This document shows, piece after piece, positions 12,655 to 62,785 of a stretch of DNA of 64,000 bases. The notes beneath the pieces are model-generated. The model worked only from the letters and a program-made list of their open reading frames with translations. It was not told the DNA's origin and made no database searches. Position 1 is the first letter of the stretch. Each line of letters begins with the position of its first letter. Source of the stretch: a virus; IMG/VR virus record IMGVR_UViG_3300045988_126562. One strand, given 5' to 3'. The translations under genes were made by a program, and so were the position numbers.

Positions 12655-13031
12655 AATCTACATTTATCATAATAAGATTTTAGACAAAATATATATAATC
12701 TATTAGATGCTTCTACAGGAGTGTGACCATCCCATTCATTAGCCTTTTCTTTCTCTGGAATATCAAATAAATTCCAGTCTTCTACCCTATAATGGTTACT
12801 GATCTGACCTGTAGGTAATTCAGCCATCACAATAAACCAATCTCCTCCGAAACACATTTCTCCATCAGAATGCTTTCTTGACTTGTGAACATCATAGTTA
12901 CCGTGTAAAGAATTAAAAAATGCTGCATTATATAACATACGGTAACGATAAAGCTCATTAAAAGTATGAAATCCGTCTGAAACTTTATCCTCAGGAACAA
13001 ATAAATTTTTAAGTCTTTGTAATAATTTCAT
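12648..13031 (-). CDS. Hypothetical protein (HTFNELY / WDGH motifs)
   Basis: 127-aa ORF abutting the Pnkp gene. Function unknown. Confidence 0.45.
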   Translation of the reverse strand: MKLLQRLKNLFVPEDKVSDGFHTFNELYRYRMLYNAAFFNSLHGNYDVHKSRKHSDGEMCFGGDWFIVMAELPTGQISNHYRVEDWNLFDIPEKEKANEWDGHTPVEASNRLYIFCLKSYYDKCRLC

Positions 13032-13966
13032 TAGAATTTTCCTTCATTAGGTTGTAACACAGTTAAACCTAAATCTCTATACATTTGCACACATTTATAG
13101 TTATCGTCTAGTACAAACCATACATTATACTTAGGTTCGATCTTTTCCTTATAAATTTTCTCTTTAGTTGGAGCACCCTTGCTGTAATCTTTATATGGTT
13201 TAAAGAATATATCATCGTAAGGAATATAGTGATCTTTTAGCCAAGTTTTAGTAGCTTCCATAATATCTGGAGCACCTTCTCTTCCTGTTACAATAAGTAT
13301 CTTAAAGTTTTGCATATGCATAATTTGAACTAAGTCACATATAGGCTTATTTGGAATGTCAGTCAGCATACCTTCTGCTGCACCGTCTCCCCAGAAAGGT
13401 CTTTTAGTAGTATTGAAACAAAGAGTAGAGTCCATATCTACTATAATAGCATTTTCCTTATCATGGCTATATGAATCCTCCATCTTGTTCATATTATCCA
13501 CTACCCTCATTACTTCTTCGTGTATAATAAAATCTCTATATCTTTTCCAAGTATCACGAATAACTTTTTCTCCAACAGGGTTAGGTCTCATAGCATCACG
13601 ACGAATACATTCTTCAACTGGAATAAAGAAATCTTTATATTCAACTTTATATTCCCAGCCATAAATGTAATTTTCGTTAAAATCTTTAACCATATTTTCT
13701 AACTCAGCACAAGTCTTAGGGTTAAGGTTCATATTATCAACCACAATATTATAACCTTTTTCCATACTATTAGCTAGTACAGTATGGTAAGTTGCAGTAA
13801 CTATCTTCTCTCTGCTAGGAACCCAATAGTCTCCTAACATATTGCGAATATCATCATTATTAAACCTAACTCTGTGCTCTGGATCTTCATGGCACCATTG
13901 TTTAGCCCAAGTTGATTTACCAGATCCTTGAATGCCTCTACAAATAATTAATTTTCTTACCTCCAT
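13031..13966 (-). CDS. Bifunctional polynucleotide 5'-kinase / 3'-phosphatase (T4 Pnkp-like)
   Basis: N-terminal P-loop GIQGSGKST. C-terminal HAD phosphatase motifs IVDMDSTL (DxDxT), VTGR and LDDN. Confidence 0.8.
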   Translation of the reverse strand: MEVRKLIICRGIQGSGKSTWAKQWCHEDPEHRVRFNNDDIRNMLGDYWVPSREKIVTATYHTVLANSMEKGYNIVVDNMNLNPKTCAELENMVKDFNENYIYGWEYKVEYKDFFIPVEECIRRDAMRPNPVGEKVIRDTWKRYRDFIIHEEVMRVVDNMNKMEDSYSHDKENAIIVDMDSTLCFNTTKRPFWGDGAAEGMLTDIPNKPICDLVQIMHMQNFKILIVTGREGAPDIMEATKTWLKDHYIPYDDIFFKPYKDYSKGAPTKEKIYKEKIEPKYNVWFVLDDNYKCVQMYRDLGLTVLQPNEGKF

Positions 13967-15554: not shown

Positions 15555-15849
15555 ATATACTTATAATTTCTACTATCTCATTATTAACGAACCATTCTAA
15601 CTGTTTATACAAAGATTCCAATTCTGCCTCAGACAAATCAGGATTGGACATATCAGATAAAAGATCTTTTAGGGAAAAGTCCTTTTCCTCTTCTGAAACA
15701 AATAATCTTCCTAATTCGCTGCTTAATAAAATATCAGCTCTAATAAGCAAAGGGACACTTTCATCATGAATAGTGTCCCTTACAATACCTTCTACATTTC
15801 TTTTTATTCTTTTATAATCAGAGATTATTTCGTGTATGTTTTCTATCAT
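15547..15849 (-). CDS. Hypothetical protein
   Basis: 100-aa ORF in a co-oriented array. Confidence 0.4.
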   Translation of the reverse strand: MIENIHEIISDYKRIKRNVEGIVRDTIHDESVPLLIRADILLSSELGRLFVSEEEKDFSLKDLLSDMSNPDLSEAELESLYKQLEWFVNNEIVEIISIYE

Positions 15850-17210
15850 TATTGTTCAGCCTCAATATCAAATTCCCCTTTGTCCAAAGCTGCTCTCTCC
15901 TTTTCCAAGAATGCAAAACATTTTAGTTTATATACATCAATGTTAAGAGATTCATTTCTAATTACTATGCCTTCATGTGGCACTTTGTTAATGCAACGAG
16001 GACTATACATTTCCATATTAAATCTCTTATCTTTAGATAGACATTCAACGAAGTTATCATTCCAATGGTTTGTTACGTCTAAGTCAGGATATAGATTTTT
16101 TGCATACCCATAATAATATTGTTCTACAGGAGTCCATCCCATTTTTTCACATAATTGTTGAACTTGTCTAGCGCTAAACTCATATACAGCACCGTCAAGA
16201 TTGGTATAAGTAATACGATATACTTCTACTCCATAGTTTTTTCCATATTTCCATTTACTTGGAGATTCTGGTTTTTCAAATCCATAATCCCACTTTCCTT
16301 GAATAGGAGCACCATTAGGCCAATATCCTAGTATCTCGTAATATACAGTCATACCTTTTGGAAGACTACCAAATAAGAGATTATGAATCTCATTTCTTCC
16401 CATAACATCTGCTCCTCCATAATACCCAGATACTCTTTCATTTAGAATTGGATCTTGAATCACTTTTCTAGAACTGCAGAAACTATGGTATTCCTCTATA
16501 TATTTCTGCCTTCTCATTATTTTATCGAAGAATGATTTAGGAAGTTGCTTTTTAATCATTACATTTGCAGAGATTCCGGAGGTTCCATGTACTTTTGCAG
16601 TAATAGAAATCAATGAATCAGGTTTGATTACATAAGGACATTTCTTTAGGAGGGTGGTATCTACGTGATAATGGAACTGTCCTTCTAAAACTTCTGCATC
16701 TGCTTTCTTTTTAGGTTGTTTTCCTTGTTTAGATCCTGAAGTTCCAGGTGTCCTTTGATATTTCGGAACATACTTTTTACATAGCAATTTTCCATCTATA
16801 GTATCAAAATCTACTCCTACTTCAGAGTCATCAATTACAACAGGACTGTCTATAAAACAATTAAAGGATTCTATAGGAATAATAAATCCTTCGCTAATTT
16901 CTCCCTTTAATTTAATAGCCTTTACTCTTCCCTTGTCTTCAAACATCCCGGTTTTGGAATGATCAACATTCATGGAAGCATCTCTAAACAAATTATTTTT
17001 ACCTAAAAATTCTTTGTCTATACAGCACTCTACCGGAAAATAAATATAAAATCCTGGCTTTGAATCTATTCCGGTAATAACATTAAATCCATCTACCTTG
17101 CAGCATTTTAATTTAGTTACTTCTGGATTAGAATGAGAGTGAAATTCTTGGATATTCACGATTTTTGCTGCATAATTAGCATTGAAATTTTTACTTCTTG
17201 ATAAATTCAT
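15849..17210 (-). CDS. RNA ligase, Rnl2-like nucleotidyltransferase
   Basis: Motif I AKVHGTSG (KxHG, as in T4 Rnl2 KIHGTN), motif III-like YYEILGY, motif IV HEGIVIRN and motif V YKLKC. An N-terminal ~190-aa extension is unassigned. Confidence 0.65.
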   Translation of the reverse strand: MNLSRSKNFNANYAAKIVNIQEFHSHSNPEVTKLKCCKVDGFNVITGIDSKPGFYIYFPVECCIDKEFLGKNNLFRDASMNVDHSKTGMFEDKGRVKAIKLKGEISEGFIIPIESFNCFIDSPVVIDDSEVGVDFDTIDGKLLCKKYVPKYQRTPGTSGSKQGKQPKKKADAEVLEGQFHYHVDTTLLKKCPYVIKPDSLISITAKVHGTSGISANVMIKKQLPKSFFDKIMRRQKYIEEYHSFCSSRKVIQDPILNERVSGYYGGADVMGRNEIHNLLFGSLPKGMTVYYEILGYWPNGAPIQGKWDYGFEKPESPSKWKYGKNYGVEVYRITYTNLDGAVYEFSARQVQQLCEKMGWTPVEQYYYGYAKNLYPDLDVTNHWNDNFVECLSKDKRFNMEMYSPRCINKVPHEGIVIRNESLNIDVYKLKCFAFLEKERAALDKGEFDIEAEQ

Positions 17211-18508: not shown

Positions 18509-19687
18509 TTATTCCAAATCATCCCTAAAAGCTTTAAAACTTGGCTGCAAGGGAATTCCGTCTTCCGAATAATAGAAAAATTTACATTCTCCTATTTTTC
18601 CCTTATACTTAGATTCAAAGTTTTCCCAATATTCCTTTTTTAGTTCTCTGTCTCCAAAAGGTTTGGCTTTAAAGCGTTTTCCATCTTGAGTTTCTAAAAT
18701 AAAAACCATATCTTCGGATCCCCTAAGACCAGGCTCTTTATCAACAACTTTAAAGCAATCGTCCAAATATGACTTTACCTTAATCATATCATTAGTTCTC
18801 TTATTGATTCCATATGTCTTACTTGGATTACGTATAACAACTCCTTCAAAGCCTTCAGAAACATACTTATCATGCAGGGTTTTTATTTCACTCCATCCTT
18901 CACATGGGGTATGTTCTACCATAACTACCTTTATATCAGAATCTTGAAAGTATGGAGTTACTACGTCCTCTAACATTTCTAGTCTATCTTCGAATGTCAA
19001 ATTAGGATCTACTACATCATAAATCCAATATTCTAAGGCTTCACATTTACTATAAACATCAGTTTCCAACCTAGCCAGACCACTTATGTATTGTAGAGGT
19101 CTTCCATGTATATACAATTCTCCATCCAGTATTATATCAGGGTTTTCTTCAAATAACTTAATCATATCCGAATGCCCTGTTATATGTTTGGTAGAATAGT
19201 CATAATGTTGCCCTCCTCTGCTAGCTGTATGAACTTCCCCATCTTTGTAGTACATCAAGCATCGCACTCCATCTATCTTACGGCTAGCTAACCATTTTTT
19301 CTCTAAAGCAGAACTAGCTACCTTATTAAAGTCTTTAGCTAACATAGGTTTTACCATTCCGTTAGCATCTGTAGTATCAGTAGGAAGGATTTTATCTAAA
19401 TCCTCCTTAGAATATTTGCTTATCTCTTTGTCTAAAAGTTTATATCCCTTGTCTTGATATTTTTTCAAGTGGGAATTATACTCTAATCTAGCTTGTTCAG
19501 TAACAGTACGTTTAGCTTTTCCTTTACTTATTACTATTTCAGGTTGAGTAGTTATTTTTCCTCCATATTGAGAAGTATATCGTCTAATAACGAATCCATT
19601 ATGATCATCTTCCCATTGATAACTTATTTCTACTACTCTTATCTTACCTTTAGAATCCCTAGAAATTAAAGTATTTTGACCTATCAC
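18509..19687 (-). CDS. ATP-dependent DNA ligase
   Basis: Motif I SRKIDGVR (KxDG), motif [10 protein letters not shown] and motif V IKVK. Confidence 0.85.
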
Positions 19688-31824: not shown

Positions 31825-32034
31825 TTAAAATTCAGATATTTCGTAAAAATTTCCTATTGCATATCCTGCTTCTTCCATAATGGCTACAAAGTCTTCCCAG
31901 TCTGCTGGAACATCCTCATCACTTGGAAGATATAGATCAATAAATCGATCCTCAGCAGATGCTAAACTTCTGGCTGTAATTTTTTCTATAAAAACAGAGC
32001 TTCCATCGAAAACAGGTATCAAATAAGTATTCAT
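31825..32034 (-). CDS. Hypothetical acidic protein
   Basis: 69-aa ORF with an ATGA overlap. Confidence 0.35.
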   Translation of the reverse strand: MNTYLIPVFDGSSVFIEKITARSLASAEDRFIDLYLPSDEDVPADWEDFVAIMEEAGYAIGNFYEISEF

Positions 32035-32831
32035 TGTTGTTTGATGAAATTATCGAAATCATTAATAACCTTAATCATCTCTTTTGGTAATATTTCCAGA
32101 GCGTAGTCTTTCATATCTTCATTCATTTCTTTCCAATAAGCATATGCTATGCTTCCAGATATTGCTCCTATTGTATCTGCATCCCCACCTAAATATATAG
32201 CATTTCTAATACAACTCTCATAGCTGGTAGATTCTAGAAAACATCTAATAGCCTGGGGCACAGACCCTTCACAACTAGAGTCAAAGGTATATCCTTTTCT
32301 TACTTTTTCAATAGGTGCATCAAAATCATAGTTTGGGTAATATTCAGAAGCAATATCAGTTAATTCTTTCTTTGTGTAACCTTCACGAGCAGACCATATC
32401 AAATCAGCTACACAATTAGCTCCTATAATTCCTTTCTTATGATTATGTGTTATTTCTGCTTGTTTGGTAGAAAAATAAAGAACATCCTCATATTCATACA
32501 AATATCCGCATGGACTAACCCTCATTGCCGAGCCATTACCATAACTACCATAAGGTTCTTTCTTGTCAGAAACTATCCATTTTTTAAATAATTTGCCGTA
32601 TCCAGCATATGGATACTTACTACACCACTTTGATACAAAAGTTGTAAAATCAGGATTCTTTGGATTATGAATAATAGCTTCAGCTACACCTATTGTACAT
32701 ACTGTATCATCAGTGAATTTCCCCTTATTTTCGAATAGGTCAAAACATGGACTATTTTGTCTAGATTTTTTAAATTCATAGGGCTGACCAAATATATCTC
32801 CTACTATTGCTCCTAATAATAAGTTATTCAT
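32031..32831 (-). CDS. ADP-ribosylglycohydrolase (ARH/DraG family)
   Basis: Motifs GAIVGDIFGQPYEF, FTDDT and GGDADTIGAISG. Confidence 0.8.
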   Translation of the reverse strand: MNNLLLGAIVGDIFGQPYEFKKSRQNSPCFDLFENKGKFTDDTVCTIGVAEAIIHNPKNPDFTTFVSKWCSKYPYAGYGKLFKKWIVSDKKEPYGSYGNGSAMRVSPCGYLYEYEDVLYFSTKQAEITHNHKKGIIGANCVADLIWSAREGYTKKELTDIASEYYPNYDFDAPIEKVRKGYTFDSSCEGSVPQAIRCFLESTSYESCIRNAIYLGGDADTIGAISGSIAYAYWKEMNEDMKDYALEILPKEMIKVINDFDNFIKQQ

Positions 32832-33106
32832 GATTGAGTTTTTGCATATTTTAAATAAGACCCTGGAAACCTATACTGTAGTTTATTATAAAATACTATT
32901 AAGTCATTTGTATTAGAATCACTACATAATGATGCTCCATTAGTAGCCGTTTCTAGCTTATAGGAATCAGAGTCCAAATCGTACAATATTACTCCTATAA
33001 AATCTCCATTTTTACTAAATACTAGAAATAAACCTTGATCTGCATTTCCATCACATAAATCTACCGTTTCATGAGAATCAGGTAGAACTACATCTAACAT
33101 TTTCAT
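32828..33106 (-). CDS. Hypothetical protein
   Basis: 92-aa ORF, overlap-coupled between the radical-SAM and ARH genes. Confidence 0.35.
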   Translation of the reverse strand: MKMLDVVLPDSHETVDLCDGNADQGLFLVFSKNGDFIGVILYDLDSDSYKLETATNGASLCSDSNTNDLIVFYNKLQYRFPGSYLKYAKTQS

Positions 33107-34053
33107 AAGTTGATTTCTTTGATTGGTTTTAGGTTAAATGAGCTGGGAGTTATTTTTACACAATCCTTAGTTAGAATAATATTCTTACTAAGAGATTCTG
33201 CTGGATACATCCAGGTTTTAATTTTATTACTCTTTTCTAGTTGATTAATAAAATGAGCACCAAAGGACACATTTTTATATTTCCAAGGATCTTTATACAG
33301 AACATCTTCTAGATACTCCCATGTTCCTTCTTGTAATCCTTCTTTACTTCTACCAGATGGCATCAGTGGTAATAACACATGATAATAAATATTTTTACCA
33401 TATTCTTCTACCACTTTTAAAAACTCATCCACTGACTTATTATCTGATATAATGTGGTGTATGTTCACTTTTACATCAGATAAAGACAATAAATTGTTTA
33501 CGGCTTTTGTAGCTCTTTCCCTTAAAACCGGGTTACTAAAGCTAACAGCTACTCCACCACAATATTTAGATGTATACTCCAATATATTTCTAGCCAAAGA
33601 AGTAGACTCATCCGATAATACAATTCCGTTAGTAGTATAATTAGGGACTACTCCGCTATCATATACTGTTTTTAGAAACTCACAAAATTGAGGATGAATA
33701 GTAGGTTCTCCAGTAGAACCAATTGCTATTTGAAAAGGTTTCTCTGTAACAATAACATTAGTACTTTCTACCTGTTTATCTTCAGGGAATGTAGCCATCC
33801 ATTTTTTCCATGTTTCACAAATGTCTTGAAAATCAGTTCCTTTATTTGTAGCACTCACATAGCAGAATGGACATTCAGCATTACACCTAGTGTTAATACC
33901 TACGTCATAAAACTCACTTCTGTCAGGTTCCAATTCACTAGCTACCCCTTTACCTAATCTTACTGTTTTAAGATTATGCCAAATAGCATGATAATTCTTG
34001 TTAGGAAATTTTCTTACTTTAATCTTACTAAATAAATCTTCGTGCTTGTTCAT
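33103..34053 (-). CDS. Radical SAM enzyme, subfamily unassigned
   Basis: CxxxCxxC as CNAECPFCY, a GSTGEPTIHP (GGEP-like) motif and NYTTNG. No C-terminal Cys cluster, so no SPASM/twitch domain. Confidence 0.8.
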   Translation of the reverse strand: MNKHEDLFSKIKVRKFPNKNYHAIWHNLKTVRLGKGVASELEPDRSEFYDVGINTRCNAECPFCYVSATNKGTDFQDICETWKKWMATFPEDKQVESTNVIVTEKPFQIAIGSTGEPTIHPQFCEFLKTVYDSGVVPNYTTNGIVLSDESTSLARNILEYTSKYCGGVAVSFSNPVLRERATKAVNNLLSLSDVKVNIHHIISDNKSVDEFLKVVEEYGKNIYYHVLLPLMPSGRSKEGLQEGTWEYLEDVLYKDPWKYKNVSFGAHFINQLEKSNKIKTWMYPAESLSKNIILTKDCVKITPSSFNLKPIKEINL

Positions 34054-48782: not shown

Positions 48783-48868
48783 CTCGGACGGTAGGATTCG
48801 AACCTACGTGAGAGTTTCCTCTCGGCAGTTTTGGAGACTGCTGGCATTAACCACTCGCCCACGGCCGA
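48783..48868 (-). tRNA. Type-II (long variable arm) tRNA with anticodon CCA
   Basis: Hand fold: Ser-type D arm GGC-GAGUGGUUAAU-GCC, anticodon stem GCAGU/ACUGC, loop CUCCAAA, 17-nt variable arm, T arm GUAGG-UUCGAAU-CCUAC and discriminator G. One C-U mismatch in the acceptor stem. Confidence 0.6.
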
Positions 48869-51546: not shown

Positions 51547-51912
51547 ATTATATAACACAGAATTGCTACACTAATTTTACTTAGTCCCTGTAGATCTAAT
51601 TGCTAGCATAGGTGCTCTACAGATGTATCTCATTCGATTTATCCGGCCGGATTTACGAACTCTTGAATTGTAAGGTGGGTTTCCTCCCACGCTTCCGTGT
51701 TATAAAAAATAAGTAATTACCTAAGATCTCTAACAGATTAATACACTTGCTGTTAAAGATTACCTTAACCACCTCTACGCTTCCGTACCTTCACACCAGT
51801 GTATTGGTGTGGAAGCCTACCTCATTACTTTATTATATCTGCTTTCACGTATCAGACTAGTTCCTTCTTCTTGAAATCACGCTGAGATTCCACCCCAGAT
51901 GCCGGCTCGGAG
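51547..51912 (-). ncRNA. Candidate structured ncRNA of unknown class inside the tRNA operon
   Basis: ~365 nt with no ORF of 60 aa or more on either strand and visibly higher G+C than its surroundings. It has several hairpins (GUGGG-AGGAAA-CCCAC; CUUCCACACCA/UGGUGUGAAG; CUGUAGA/UCUACAG) and a duplicated ACGGAAGCGU element. Confidence 0.4.
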
Positions 51913-51984
51913 TGACCCCACAGGGATTCAAACCCTGATCGACGGATTAAGAGTCCGCAGCTCTAATCGTTGAGCTATGAGGTC
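51913..51984 (-). tRNA. tRNA-Lys (CUU)
   Basis: Cloverleaf GACCUCA/UGGGGUC, anticodon loop CUCUUAA, T loop UUUGAAU. Confidence 0.85.
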
Positions 51985-54263: not shown

Positions 54264-54734
54264 TCAATAATGTGATGCGTTCTTACCAGAAAAAGTATCG
54301 GTTTGGGAATGACAATTAGGACATAGTAATCTAAGGTTTTCTATTCTATTATCCTTATTATTTCCATTAATATGGTCTAATTGTAATGATAGAGGCTTTT
54401 CTTGCCACTCATTAATACCACATATACTACACTTGTATTCTAGTAAATTAGATTCCAATAGCCTCTTCTTTAGAGAAGTGTTATTGGTGTAAGTAGAATC
54501 TTCTACTAGAATATCTTCTAAGGACTTATACCTTTCAGGTGAGTGATTTTTAGCATATCTATTAAAGTGGGATGTATCTATATCTAGCTCTCCTATCTTA
54601 TCTTTAATTAGTTTAGTAACTCCGCCTCCCTTTGACCTATAACCAAGCTTAAAAGCTATTTCGGAAACTGTCTCAGATTCTTTAACTATATTACTAAACT
54701 CTTCATCACTAAATTTACTTATTAAAGTTCCCAT
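54264..54734 (-). CDS. HNH homing endonuclease (paralogue of 60624..61130)
   Basis: Contains CSICG...HINGNNKDNRIENLRLLCPNCH. Start moved to MGTLISKF, because the track N-terminus is a read-through of tRNA-Phe. The stop TGA abuts the 3' tRNA half. Confidence 0.75.
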   Translation of the reverse strand: MGTLISKFSDEEFSNIVKESETVSEIAFKLGYRSKGGGVTKLIKDKIGELDIDTSHFNRYAKNHSPERYKSLEDILVEDSTYTNNTSLKKRLLESNLLEYKCSICGINEWQEKPLSLQLDHINGNNKDNRIENLRLLCPNCHSQTDTFSGKNASHY

Positions 54735-54739
54735 ATAGG

Positions 54740-54811
54740 TGGGACAGGAGGGAATTGAACCCCCAACGCCAGGTTCTTCAAACCTGCGCTCTACCATTGA
54801 GCTACTGTCCC
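54740..54811 (-). tRNA. tRNA-Phe (GAA), nested inside the split tRNA
   Basis: Cloverleaf GGGACAG/CUGUCCC, D arm GCUC-AAUGGUA-GAGC, anticodon loop UUGAAGA, T loop UUCAAUU. Confidence 0.85.
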
Positions 54812-55552: not shown

Positions 55553-55577
55553 ATCTTATATATTTTACTAAATTTTG

Positions 55578-55648
55578 TGATTCCAGTCGGACTCGAACCG
55601 ACGTATTTGGTTTTAGGGACCAACGGATAGCCACTCTCCCATGAAATC
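55578..55648 (-). tRNA. Predicted amber-suppressor tRNA (anticodon CUA)
   Basis: Cloverleaf GAUUUCA/UGGAAUC, D arm GGA-GAGUGGCUA-UCC, anticodon stem UUGGU/ACCAA, loop CCCUAAA (anticodon at 55614-55616), T arm GUCGG-UUCGAGU-CCGAC. Position 33 is an unusual C. Confidence 0.6.
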
Positions 55649-56496: not shown

Positions 56497-56541
56497 AAAT
56501 TTTTAATTGTTTAACATCTGGAAACTAAAAGTTTTAATTTG

Positions 56542-56626
56542 TGTACCCTCTGGGACTCGAACCCAGCGTGGGATTACTCCCTCCGGATTAAAAGTCCGGT
56601 GCAGTAGCCAGCTCTGCTCAGGGTAC
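56542..56626 (-). tRNA. tRNA-Lys (UUU) with a 16-nt long variable arm
   Basis: Cloverleaf GUACCCU/AGGGUAC, D arm GCAG-AGCUGGCUA-CUGC, anticodon stem CCGGA/UCCGG, loop CUUUUAA, variable arm AGGGAGUAAUCCCACG (GGGA/UCCC stem), T arm CUGGG-UUCGAGU-CCCAG, discriminator A. Confidence 0.7.
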
Positions 56627-56720
56627 AGATTACAGGATTCATATAAACAGTCCAATATATCCCTAATATACTCTAGTTTAAATTTGCTGTAAGAATCCTT
56701 ATTTCTTTAATACAGTGATG

Positions 56721-56728: not shown

Positions 56729-56811
56729 GTAATTCTTTTTTACTATTCCAAAATTTTCTATAAGATTTTTATACTAATAGTATACGTATATACTAAATAA
56801 GCGACCTATTG

Positions 56812-57237
56812 TTATAAGTCGCCTTTCTTTATTTTTTTATACAAAGAATAAGGAATTTCATTAAAATTTTCCTTCCCTTCTTCTCTTAATGCTATCATTT
56901 TTACTCCATTTCTGTAGAATACAGTAGGATCAGATTCCAATACATAGTTATCTTTTATATGATTCTCATTGCAATATTCATGGGAATTAAGAAACGGCAA
57001 AACAAGCTTAACCATCTCTCTTATAGGAATAGTAACTTCCTGCATCATAGGAATCCAGTTTGCACAGGTATTTACTGTATGAAGTGGAACGTTACTACCA
57101 GATATAGTTTGCATTCCAGAATTACCCATAAATCGTACATAATCATGGGCTACTATAATTCTTTTTTCTCTAGAAAAATCTAGATCTTCTAATTCTACTT
57201 CAAATTTTCTTTCACTAATCTGTTTTGTTATCTTCAT
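56812..57237 (-). CDS. Hypothetical protein
   Basis: 141-aa ORF. A GCGAC/GUCGC hairpin spans its stop codon. Confidence 0.4.
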   Translation of the reverse strand: MKITKQISERKFEVELEDLDFSREKRIIVAHDYVRFMGNSGMQTISGSNVPLHTVNTCANWIPMMQEVTIPIREMVKLVLPFLNSHEYCNENHIKDNYVLESDPTVFYRNGVKMIALREEGKENFNEIPYSLYKKIKKGDL

Positions 57238-59758: not shown

Positions 59759-59777
59759 AAGTTTCTAATTTGAAAGG

Positions 59778-59864
59778 CGGAGAGCACTGGAATCGAACCA
59801 GACACCCATACGGAGTGCAATCTGCTTAGCAGGCAGTCCCTATCACCATCAAGGATTACTCTCC
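59778..59864 (-). tRNA. tRNA-Ser (GCU)
   Basis: Acceptor GGAGAGU/GCUCUCC, anticodon loop CUGCUAA, long variable arm with a CACUC/GGGUG stem, T loop UUCGAUU, discriminator G. Confidence 0.75.
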
Positions 59865-60391: not shown

Positions 60392-61228
60392 CAAGCTATG
60401 AGTCTTAGCTTCGACTATGTCTTAACCATATCTTTCGACTTAGGTTGCTGGTATATAGTCTGTACACATTTATAAATTGGGTTGGGCGTCAGGTGTCCCT
60501 CCGTTGTTTTCAGCCTATGTTTTCAAGGCATCCTTCTTTTAAAACATACGAACAAAAACGAATGTTCCCAATTTAACTTAGCTCGGCGTTATTTACATTT
60601 ATAAGGCTGTAACCTTCACCGAATTAGCCAGCTTCTACTTCAAGAGTTTCCTCTTGAGCACTCAATACCTTTCCTGAATAATTGTCTGTTTGTGCATGAC
60701 AATTTGGACAAAGAACTTGTAGATTTTCTAAACGATTATCTGTATGAATTCCGTTTAAATGGTGTAATTCAAGTGAAATAGGATGTCCTAACCACTCAGT
60801 TAAACCGCAGCATTCACATTTATGTTCTTTTATTCCTTCAGACAGAAGACGATTACGGATATTATGAGAAGTCCATCCTGAATTTTCAATTAAAATTTCA
60901 GAAATGTCTTTCTTTTTGATTGACGGATGTTCTCCACTTTTTAATCCTTTATTCCATCGTGCTCCTGTAAAATGACTCATATCTAAATTTAATTGTTGTA
61001 TCTTCTTTTTTACTGTATTAAGATTACCTCCTTTTGGAGATATTCCGATAATTCTACACACTTCGGCGTAAGAATGTCCTTCTTTTACAGCATTAATAAA
61101 TTGTTCTTCTGTATATTTTTTACTTGCCATGGTATATTATTTTAATACACTATTATACTAATAAAAATTGTATACACAAAAAATAATTTTAACTTAATAC
61201 TTCCAATTAATTTAGATGTAATTTTTTT
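60392..61228 (-). mobile_element. Group I intron carrying an HNH homing endonuclease ORF
   Basis: An R-like element CAGACUAUAUACC (60450-60466) and an S-like element AAGACAUAGUCG (60412-60423). A terminal hairpin AAGCUA..UAGCUU is followed by G at the 3' junction. Insertion position is 34/35, as in the classic tRNA-Leu intron. Confidence 0.65.
60624..61130 (-). CDS. HNH homing endonuclease (intron-encoded)
   Basis: Contains CECCG...HHLNGIHTDNRLENLQVLCPNCH. Alignable along its length with 54264..54734. Confidence 0.8.
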   Translation of the reverse strand: MASKKYTEEQFINAVKEGHSYAEVCRIIGISPKGGNLNTVKKKIQQLNLDMSHFTGARWNKGLKSGEHPSIKKKDISEILIENSGWTSHNIRNRLLSEGIKEHKCECCGLTEWLGHPISLELHHLNGIHTDNRLENLQVLCPNCHAQTDNYSGKVLSAQEETLEVEAG

Positions 61229-61708: not shown

Positions 61709-62785
61709 TTACATTATTTCTTTATCACAGTTAAACATAGACAATTCTATTCCTCTGAACTTAGAATATATTGGTTGAAGATCAGAAAAGCTACATTCTT
61801 TTAGATTGTTAATATAAGTTAGTTGGTCTTTGAGATCCCAACAAGTAAAACATATTTTGGAGGAAACGTTTATACCTTCTTTTTCCGTTATAATTCTGTT
61901 ACAATTAATGGAATGGTTAAGAAGATCTAAATCTAATTTAGCGTATTTTAAAGATCCTTGAAACTTATTATATACATTAATTTCTTCAGGATTAACAATG
62001 TTCTCTAGTGGTTCTGATAATATAGGCCCATTTCCATGTCTAGTTATATATATTCTAGATACATAATTTACTATTATATCTTTCACACCAATAGACTTTA
62101 TAATTTTATAAGCATTTTCTCCAGTTGTATTAGAAGGAGTAGTGTGTGGATAGAATCCAAATTTTTGATCTAGTAGTATTCCTTGAGATCCTTCAAATAT
62201 AATATTAGAAAAGCTAGGTTTTAAGAATCCTATTTTATTTCTTTTGAACCAGTTAATATAAGATTCTGCTAATTCTTCTATATTAACACAGGTTTCATTA
62301 TAATACTCTAATATAGAATTTAGCTTGGAGAGCAACACTTTTTTATTTTGACATTCTTCCACTGTAAGGGAGCAGCATTCCATAACTCTTTTAATAGCCG
62401 GCCAATATCCGGTTCCTACGGTTCCATGTTTTAAATTATCCTTATCTTTTCTTTGAAAAGATATATCCATAGGAGTAATTACTTGACATAAGGGATTATA
62501 TATTACCTTTGGAGTTACATTGAACTTTTCTAATAAAATTTTACTTTCAACTATAGCAGACAAGGGGTTTACAAAACAATACTCTGACCAATAAGTAGGA
62601 CATCCTTTAAAAGTTCCACTTCCAAAATTACTGAAAACGTGTTTTTTGTTTCCAGAAATAACTGTATGACCACTTTGTGATCCGCCACTAAATCTTACTA
62701 TAATGGAGTTTGAGTCAGATAGGTTATGCACTATCTGACCCTTGCCCTCGTCTCCAAAAAAGGCTCCTAAAACTATATGTATCAT
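61709..62785 (-). CDS. Short-form adenylosuccinate synthetase homologue (PurA family; PurZ candidate)
   Basis: N-terminal GDEGKGQIV P-loop, GGSQSGHT (compare GGHNAGHT in PurA) and GTVGTG (compare GTTGRG). 358 aa, roughly 70 aa shorter than bacterial PurA. Confidence 0.7.
   Translation of the reverse strand: MIHIVLGAFFGDEGKGQIVHNLSDSNSIIVRFSGGSQSGHTVISGNKKHVFSNFGSGTFKGCPTYWSEYCFVNPLSAIVESKILLEKFNVTPKVIYNPLCQVITPMDISFQRKDKDNLKHGTVGTGYWPAIKRVMECCSLTVEECQNKKVLLSKLNSILEYYNETCVNIEELAESYINWFKRNKIGFLKPSFSNIIFEGSQGILLDQKFGFYPHTTPSNTTGENAYKIIKSIGVKDIIVNYVSRIYITRHGNGPILSEPLENIVNPEEINVYNKFQGSLKYAKLDLDLLNHSINCNRIITEKEGINVSSKICFTCWDLKDQLTYINNLKECSFSDLQPIYSKFRGIELSMFNCDKEIM

Follow-up and report, generated by a model that had tools for sequence, protein, structure and literature searches.

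A crAss-like gut phage lysine tRNA with a conserved extra hairpin arm and similar arms on many phage tRNAs, possibly for escape from bacterial tRNA-cutting enzymes

Structure of the tRNA-Lys(UUU) gene

Long variable arms are a textbook property of only Leu, Ser, Tyr (in bacteria), and Sec tRNAs, whereas the tRNA-Lys described from cells are class I, with a variable loop of 4-5 nt. A gene in the virus record IMGVR_UViG_3300045988_126562, of which a stretch of 64,000 nucleotides was analyzed (hereafter, the window), appeared to break this rule, raising the questions of whether it is a genuine tRNA-Lys, whether its extra arm is maintained, and what the arm might do. An initial sequence-only reading had proposed a tRNA-Lys(UUU) with a type-II-like 16-nt variable arm that should still be charged with lysine and might sterically block anticodon nucleases. 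The features considered here are as follows.

56542-56626, minus strand: tRNA-Lys(UUU) gene, 85 nt including discriminator A73 (at 56542), with no encoded CCA
56567-56582, minus strand: variable region of 16 nt, composed of A (56582), 5′ stem GGGA (56581-56578), GUAA tetraloop (56577-56574), 3′ stem UCCC (56573-56570), and 3′ linker ACG (56569-56567)
56590-56592, minus strand: anticodon UUU (tRNA positions 34-36) within the loop CUUUUAA (56594-56588)
56618-56619, minus strand: G8 and A9, with a non-canonical G in place of U8
56684-56693, minus strand: motif CTTACAGCAA, 58-67 nt upstream of the tRNA
56799-56824, minus strand: terminator-like hairpin at the end of the upstream ORF (56812-57237)
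48783-48868, minus strand: tRNA-Trp(CCA) with an extra arm, C-GAGAG-GAAA-CUCUC-AC, and G73
51912-51984, minus strand: ordinary class-I tRNA-Lys(CUU), 73 nt with a 4-nt variable loop, for comparison
13031-13966, minus strand: T4-type polynucleotide kinase-phosphatase (Pnkp), context only
15849-17210, minus strand: RNA ligase, context only

ARAGORN called tRNA-Lys(UUU) at 56541-56626 on the minus strand, and the Rfam tRNA model RF00005 matched 56542-56626 at 52.4 bits (gathering score 29, E = 2e-8), treating GGGAGUAAUCCC as an insertion in the variable region. The minimum-free-energy fold was a 7/5 cloverleaf plus a fifth hairpin (-37.7 kcal/mol, z = -3.8, 0 of 200 shuffles as good). The RNA comprises a 7-bp acceptor stem GUACCCU/AGGGUAC, G8 and A9, a 4-bp D stem GCAG/CUGC enclosing AGCUGGCUA, a single A, anticodon stem CCGGA/UCCGG, the 16-nt variable region AGGGAGUAAUCCCACG, T arm CUGGG-UUCGAGU-CCCAG, and A73. 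Thus, the observation made from the sequence alone is correct, and every element it listed is present. Three corrections apply, however: the gene lies on the minus strand; it is not otherwise textbook, because position 8 is G rather than the near-universal U and no CCA is encoded; and the promoter-like box that had been assigned to it at 56728-56721 (TACCTTTG, of the TAnnTTTG type) carries no weight, since 75 matches to this pattern occur in the window against 84.6 expected. Of the conserved core nucleotides, A14, G18 G19, and the T-loop UUCGAGU are present but position 8 is G in all 16 aligned family members, a mixed outcome that neither secures nor excludes a fully canonical elongator core.

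Sigma-70-like sites were likewise at chance level (10 against 9.9 expected), and promoter claims were therefore dropped. The terminator-like hairpin, which is a consensus match only, suggests that the tRNA is not simply read through from the upstream ORF. The motif CTTACAGCAA also lies upstream of the orthologous tRNA in two other sub-lineages (typified by related loci L148 and L021) but is not repeated in the window above chance, and its role is unexplained.

Genomic context

The window has 32% G+C and carries, on one strand, 11 tRNA genes, a tmRNA, an amber-suppressor tRNA(CUA), and HNH endonuclease ORFs between tRNAs. Its family-A DNA polymerase is 48-51% identical to those of crAss-like phages of Bacteroides, an anaerobic ribonucleotide reductase is present, and related contigs are 95-240 kb, many from human-gut samples. 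This is thus a large crAss-like gut phage, probably infecting Bacteroidales.

The window also encodes a T4-type Pnkp and an RNA ligase, the classic tRNA-repair pair, which in T4 heals and seals tRNA-Lys cut by the PrrC anticodon nuclease. The full-length Pnkp matched Pfam HAD_PNKP (1.5e-28) and AAA_33, phrog_505 (3.6e-66), and, in the PDB, Pnkp1 4xrp (5e-26) and T4 PNK 1ltq (2.5e-19). The RNA ligase matched phrog_968 “RNA ligase” over its full length (3e-41) and has a KVDG motif at residue 38; however, its match to TIGR02306 was weak and a PDB sequence search returned nothing, so its assignment rests on PHROGs.

Conservation of the arm in related loci

To assess whether the arm is conserved, viral and metagenome collections were searched with a pattern covering only the D arm and the anticodon arm, leaving the variable region free. 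In total, 47 loci holding 19 distinct tRNAs were recovered, all with a 15-16-nt variable region forming a hairpin and none with a 4-5-nt loop. In the 16 sequences of equal length, three of the four pairs of the arm helix were changed on both sides (G-C/A-U, A-U/G-C, A-U/C-G) and 98.4% of cells were paired, and RNAalifold predicted both the cloverleaf and this helix independently. One related locus (L188) carries the identical gene and flanks, whereas another (L181) differs by one base, giving an A.C mismatch that is the expected one-step intermediate between the GGGA/UCCC of the window and the GGAA/UUCC of the commonest relative (L148 type). The loops are the stable tetraloops GUAA, UUCG, or GCAU, the acceptor and T stems also covary, as in a working tRNA, and both A73 and G8 are invariant. 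Absence or variability of the arm in close relatives had been put forward at the outset as grounds for calling it a neutral insertion; the relatives instead show an arm that is always present and maintained by selection.

No cultured phage was found to carry this exact family. A megablast search of the 14.5-kb tRNA region against 50,697 GenBank phages found only a 42-nt tRNA-Cys match, and a blastn search with the tRNA alone found nothing.

Armed tRNAs in other phages and in cellular genomes

A looser pattern, requiring a Lys(UUU) anticodon arm, a gap too long for a class-I loop, and a T arm, recovered 22 IMG/VR viral contigs, in which all hits are tRNA-Lys(UUU) genes of 83-90 nt lying in phage tRNA arrays. 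Their bodies and arm sequences fall into several unrelated groups, one of which has a tRNA-Tyr-like D arm and a 12-nt loop. The same pattern gave only five hits in one genome each of 185,579 species, four of them inside arrays of 6-29 tRNA genes on MAG contigs, whereas with a class-I gap it hit at least 120 viral contigs. One array (L024) holds two Lys(UUU) genes with nearly the same body, of 73 and 91 nt, and L023 and L024 hold a Lys(CUU) of 74 and 92 nt, showing that arms arise by insertion into a class-I variable loop. An intron or mobile-element origin of the extra 11 nt was rejected, because the insertion lies in the variable region and forms a conserved minimal hairpin. In 67 of 74 loci, the armed gene was the only Lys(UUU) in the DNA examined, and seven loci keep an armed and an ordinary Lys(UUU) side by side. 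Armed tRNA-Lys genes of all lineages share a design consisting of a 3-4-bp stem, usually a GNRA loop (18/31), and a 2-4-nt 3′ linker that is never 1 nt, although arm sequences and lengths differ widely between lineages.

Armed tRNA-Lys genes also occur in cultured Caulobacter phiCbK-like phages. In the jumbo phage CcrRogue (JX100814, 50365-50546), tRNA-Lys(CUU) of 87 nt and tRNA-Lys(UUU) of 90 nt each have a 3-4-bp stem, a GCAA-type loop, and a 3-nt linker; however, the body differs from that of the window tRNA (tRNA-Tyr-like D arm, CCA encoded), as do the host phylum and the lineage. These genes are annotated simply as tRNA-Lys, and no comment on the arm was found in a literature search on phiCbK.

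A census of 1,154 unique tRNAs from 193 loci was used to determine which isoacceptors carry variable regions of 10 nt or more. These were found in His (12/37), Asn (9/52), Thr(UGU) (5/31), Ile(UAU) (3/16), Trp (5/36), Cys (4/30), Lys(CUU) (5/43), Met (5/68), and Glu(UUC) (3/49), but not in Ala(UGC) (0/40), Val(UAC) (0/32), Pro(UGG) (0/39), Asp (0/40), Phe (0/32), Ile(GAU) (0/42), or Gly(UCC) (0/26). Heterogeneity was strong (chi-square 75, 19 d.f., p = 1e-8), and Thr(UGU) plus Asn(GUU), the other two targets of the PARIS nuclease AriB, were enriched against the remaining class-I tRNAs (14/83 against 44/720, p = 0.001); however, these tests were post hoc and run on non-independent loci that were chosen through their tRNA-Lys and contain related phages, so the p-values are indicative only. 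A complete census of IMG/VR, INPHARED, and GTDB corrected for phylogeny was not made, nor was a test of association with Pnkp/Rnl genes in phages or with tRNA-nuclease systems in predicted hosts. In contigs chosen for a normal tRNA-Lys, 22 of 571 class-I-type tRNAs still had long arms. Within the window, the tRNA-Trp(CCA) has the same kind of arm, and relatives (L148-L157) carry armed Lys, Trp, Thr, His, and Cys tRNAs. This wider pattern, the armed tRNA-Trp, and the replacement of U8 by G were all missed by the sequence-only reading.

Amino acid identity

Lysine identity rests on the anticodon triplet and A73 (PMC9976931), both of which are present in the window tRNA, although its 16-nt stem-loop departs from the class-I variable loop of cellular tRNA-Lys. 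AAA is the most frequent codon in the ORFs of the window (916 of 14,181) and encodes the Walker-A lysines of four ATPases (the kinase, two helicases, and DnaB), so a tRNA(UUU) carrying another amino acid would be harmful, and retained lysine charging, which was not assayed, is the economical reading. A nearest-body comparison with the anticodon masked and the arm removed ranked class-I tRNA-Lys first, but this was not accepted as evidence because the comparison set had been selected with part of the same sequence.

The arm is class-II-like in being a helix-forming variable region of 10 nt or more. Serine is argued against by A73 and U2-A71 (bacterial tRNA-Ser has G73 and G2-C71) and by the 3-nt 3′ linker, since 35 of 43 phage tRNA-Ser have a 1-nt linker. 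Leucine is argued against by G15, since E. coli LeuRS needs A15-U48 along with A73 and the D-loop arrangement, and by the 4-bp D stem, although A73 is present, and tyrosine is argued against by U34 and U36. The anticodon is not one of Ser, Leu, or Tyr.

Possible functions of the arm

The best explanation is that this is a functional elongator tRNA that reads AAA/AAG and is charged with lysine by the host LysRS through its UUU anticodon and A73, with a class-I body (4-bp D stem, ordinary D and T loops) to which a short, rigid hairpin has been added, and that selection maintains the structure of this hairpin rather than its sequence. The arm projects from the junction of the anticodon stem and the tRNA core and, in this view, would change the shape of that region, so that host defence nucleases or toxins recognizing host tRNA-Lys no longer bind or cut it, whereas the ribosome and EF-Tu, which already handle class-II tRNAs, should still accept it. 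The analysis itself demonstrates a real tRNA, an arm conserved with covariation, its recurrent and largely phage-restricted occurrence, the use of AAA for lysine, and nearby tRNA-repair genes; charging with lysine is inferred and likely, whereas the anti-nuclease role is inferred and only tentative, as is the full chain of functional tRNA, lysine charging, and protection. The interpretation in the sequence-only reading is thus partly supported: the arm is real and retained and the repair genes fit pressure from tRNA nucleases and show investment against tRNA damage, but a block of PrrC, RloC, or AriB is pure inference, without expression, charging, or cleavage data.

The position of the arm makes a steric or shape-based block plausible. 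tRNA-Lys(UUU) is a target of PrrC, and the Toprim nucleases AriB (PARIS) and P2-OLD cut the anticodon stem of Lys(UUU), Thr(UGU), and Asn(GUU) at 40/41 (PMC12409363; PMC12445682), three to four nucleotides before the arm leaves the core. Position 41 of the window tRNA is C; however, no host tRNA-Lys, defence system, or nuclease is known for this phage, so whether these differences lie where a relevant nuclease would dock is left undecided. The OLD study offers no data on armed tRNAs, since its phage-tRNA library holds only coliphage tRNAs. Against the explanation, class IIb synthetases such as LysRS are thought to approach tRNA from the variable-loop side, so an arm could hinder charging, PrrC cuts in the anticodon loop, far from the arm, and arms also occur on tRNAs with no well-known nuclease (Met, Cys).

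Several alternatives are less likely. The arm could tag phage tRNAs so that a phage-encoded nuclease that depletes host tRNAs, a modification enzyme, a synthetase, or a CCA-adding enzyme can tell them from host tRNAs; the similar design of arms on several isoacceptors in one clade would suit a common reader, and the phenomenon is tied to large tRNA arrays of big phages, but no synthetase or obvious tRNA nuclease was found among the ORFs of 250 aa or more in the window, most tRNAs of the same array have no arm, and arms differ widely between lineages. Such a tag is unlikely, as is a structural or biogenesis role in which the hairpin stabilizes folding, processing, or half-life of a tRNA weakened by G8 or a foreign modification pattern and has no role in conflict with the host. 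G8 and the arm could indeed be linked structural changes, non-U8 is more frequent among armed class-I tRNAs (25/95) than among unarmed ones (62/808), and GNRA and UNCG tetraloops are stability motifs; however, 70 of 95 armed tRNAs keep U8, so the arm is not a companion of G8 in general, and the near-absence of the feature from cellular genomes is hard to explain by stability alone.

A decoy that occupies the host nuclease rather than, or besides, replacing the cut tRNA is somewhat less likely still. The AriB study raises the possibility that overexpressed viral tRNAs act as inhibitors (PMC12409363), phage tRNA-Tyr partially suppresses Septu degradation of host tRNA-Tyr (PMC13096335), and seven loci pair an armed with an ordinary gene, but the armed gene usually stands alone, and the acceptor, T arm, and A73 are fully kept, as for a working tRNA. 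An identity switch, with AAA/AAG partly read as another amino acid through SerRS, LeuRS, or TyrRS, in parallel to the nematode nev-tRNAs (PMC3333845), is very unlikely: SerRS and LeuRS ignore the anticodon (PMC9976931), the 3-nt linker resembles tRNA-Tyr, and A73 fits Leu and Tyr, but the codon usage and determinants described above argue otherwise. A neutral insertion or pseudogene is the least likely, having nothing in its favor beyond the tolerance of variable loops for length changes, and is contradicted by the 47 of 47 armed loci with compensatory changes, the lack of decay in any other tRNA element, and independent acquisition in many lineages.

A broader and more speculative reading, possible but less likely than not, is that adding a short, rigid arm to class-I tRNAs is a general and repeatedly evolved phage strategy that disguises the most nuclease-exposed tRNAs (Lys, Thr-UGU, Asn, His, Ile-UAU, Trp, Cys), so that nucleases docking on the anticodon-stem/core junction fail while synthetases, EF-Tu, and the ribosome still accept them. 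The same phages may also do the reverse, since many phage tRNA-Leu genes lack the long arm. If so, the class I/class II division would not be fixed by the translation machinery but would be a free variable in phage-host conflict. If the arm protects against tRNA-cutting immunity, it is a third route of escape beside anticodon-loop or anticodon-stem point mutations and enzymatic repair, and would help predict which tRNAs are under attack in uncultured hosts such as gut Bacteroidales; if it is a self-marker, it points to unknown phage factors that read tRNA shape. Either way, LysRS, HisRS, AsnRS, and others would tolerate an extra arm, which is directly useful for engineering orthogonal or nuclease-proof tRNAs.

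Relationship to previously described tRNAs

Phage-encoded replacement tRNAs are already known, including those escaping nucleases through anticodon-loop and anticodon-stem mutations and through tRNA-Tyr variable loops, but no description of class-I phage tRNAs bearing conserved variable arms was found in the literature searched, which includes few subscription journals and so does not prove absence. The window tRNA is a phage-encoded isoacceptor of a tRNA cut by defence nucleases, but its membership in the defence-evading group is unproven, resistance to cleavage and rescue of infection not having been assayed. Phage T5 tRNA-Lys(UUU), which neutralizes PARIS (AriB), is likewise a phage copy of the tRNA most often targeted by defence nucleases that differs from the host tRNA so that it survives, and C41 of the window tRNA is the same base as the T5 “Mut2” change next to the AriB cut site (PMC12409363); however, T5 escapes through two substitutions in the anticodon stem and keeps a class-I shape, whereas here the difference is an added helix, and resistance is demonstrated only for T5. 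In the case of T5/T6 tRNA-Tyr, the variable region is the battleground, since PtuAB of retron-Eco7 and Septu cuts the variable arm of host tRNA-Tyr and T5 tRNA-Tyr resists through a distinctive variable loop (PMC13096335), but tRNA-Tyr is already class II in bacteria, so the change is within an existing arm rather than the creation of one. The T4 Pnkp-Rnl1 system counters the same threat with enzymes homologous to those in the window, but repairs the host tRNA after the cut rather than supplying a cut-proof replacement.

Outside of these systems, nematode nev-tRNAs also combine a long variable arm with an anticodon of a class-I amino acid (Gly/Ile), but they are class-II tRNAs that decode an alternative code for leucine (PMC3333845), whereas the window tRNA has a class-I body with Lys identity elements in a genome where AAA is clearly Lys. 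The allo-tRNAs and selC*-like tRNAs (Mukai et al., PMC5389517) are non-canonical bacterial and phage-associated tRNAs with long variable arms and many anticodons, found by metagenome mining, but they have 8/4 or 9/3 acceptor/T-stem geometry and Ser/Sec-like bodies, whereas the window tRNA-Lys is 7/5, with full pairing in all 16 aligned sequences. The tRNA-Ser(GCU) of the window, at 59776-59864, looks closer to that type.

Other tRNA and tmRNA features

Several further features of the tRNA region, all on the minus strand, were noted:

48783-48868 (-), tRNA-Trp(CCA) of 86-87 nt with a long variable arm
54264-54797 (-), HNH endonuclease ORF
55577-55648 (-), amber-suppressor tRNA(CUA)
56684-56693 (-), motif CTTACAGCAA
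57253-57594 (-), phage-encoded tmRNA (tag GKNNAISFSREIDEVRIAA)
59776-59864 (-), tRNA-Ser(GCU)
60624-61130 (-), HNH endonuclease ORF

The tRNA-Trp also carries a long variable arm (C-GAGAG-GAAA-CUCUC-AC), together with a class-II-like D arm, G73, and a C5.U68 mismatch; its Ser-like appearance raises the question of which synthetase charges it. Relatives (loci L149-L154) keep an armed tRNA-Trp, but with a different arm sequence. The tRNA-Ser(GCU) was drawn by ARAGORN with an 8-bp acceptor and a 4-bp T stem, an allo-tRNA-like geometry, and scored 44.7 bits on the Rfam tRNA-Sec model, just under the 47-bit threshold.

The amber-suppressor tRNA and the tmRNA flank the tRNA-Lys; the suppressor suggests TAG recoding, as in other crAss-like lineages, although in-frame TAG codons were not examined, and the HNH endonuclease ORFs are interspersed with the tRNA genes, recalling the homing endonucleases in the T4 and T5 tRNA regions. 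The motif CTTACAGCAA lies 58-113 nt upstream of the orthologous tRNA-Lys in three divergent sub-lineages, namely that of the window and those represented by loci L148 and L021, but is not a repeated motif in the window.

Alignment of the 16 tRNA-Lys family members showed that 12 have a G2.U71 wobble pair (alignment columns 2/83), whereas the window's tRNA has U2-A71. The G2.U71 pair is reported as a determinant for class-I LysRS and an antideterminant for E. coli class-II LysRS (PMC9976931). tRNA-Ile(UAU) genes of 91-92 nt with 22-24-nt variable arms of similar sequence occur in unrelated viral contigs (L004:4735-4826, L116:334, and L147:10543). The reverse of the extra-arm finding was also observed in the census of phage tRNAs, as many phage tRNA-Leu genes lack the long variable arm (loci L004, L020, L026, and others); for example, 10 of 16 Leu(CAA) and 12 of 28 Leu(UAG) genes have variable regions under 10 nt, and some genes are 74-78 nt long.

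Candidate RNA repair, DNA modification, and counter-defense genes

Outside the tRNA genes, the following ORFs were identified:

13031-13966 (-), T4-type Pnkp
15849-17210 (-), RNA ligase
18509-19687, ATP-dependent DNA ligase
32031-32831 (-) and 33103-34053 (-), ADP-ribosylglycohydrolase and radical-SAM protein
61709-62785 (-), adenylosuccinate-synthase homolog

The Pnkp and RNA ligase lie 2 kb apart and form a candidate tRNA healing-and-sealing module in a crAss-like phage; the ATP-dependent DNA ligase is separate. The adenylosuccinate-synthase homolog matched the PHROG family of PurZ-type enzymes (phrog_1211, 5e-50) and had a weak NCBIfam PurZ match, hinting at 2-aminoadenine (Z) DNA. The ADP-ribosylglycohydrolase and the radical-SAM protein, the latter with weak QueE/viperin-like matches, lie side by side and are possible counter-defense or nucleotide-modification genes.
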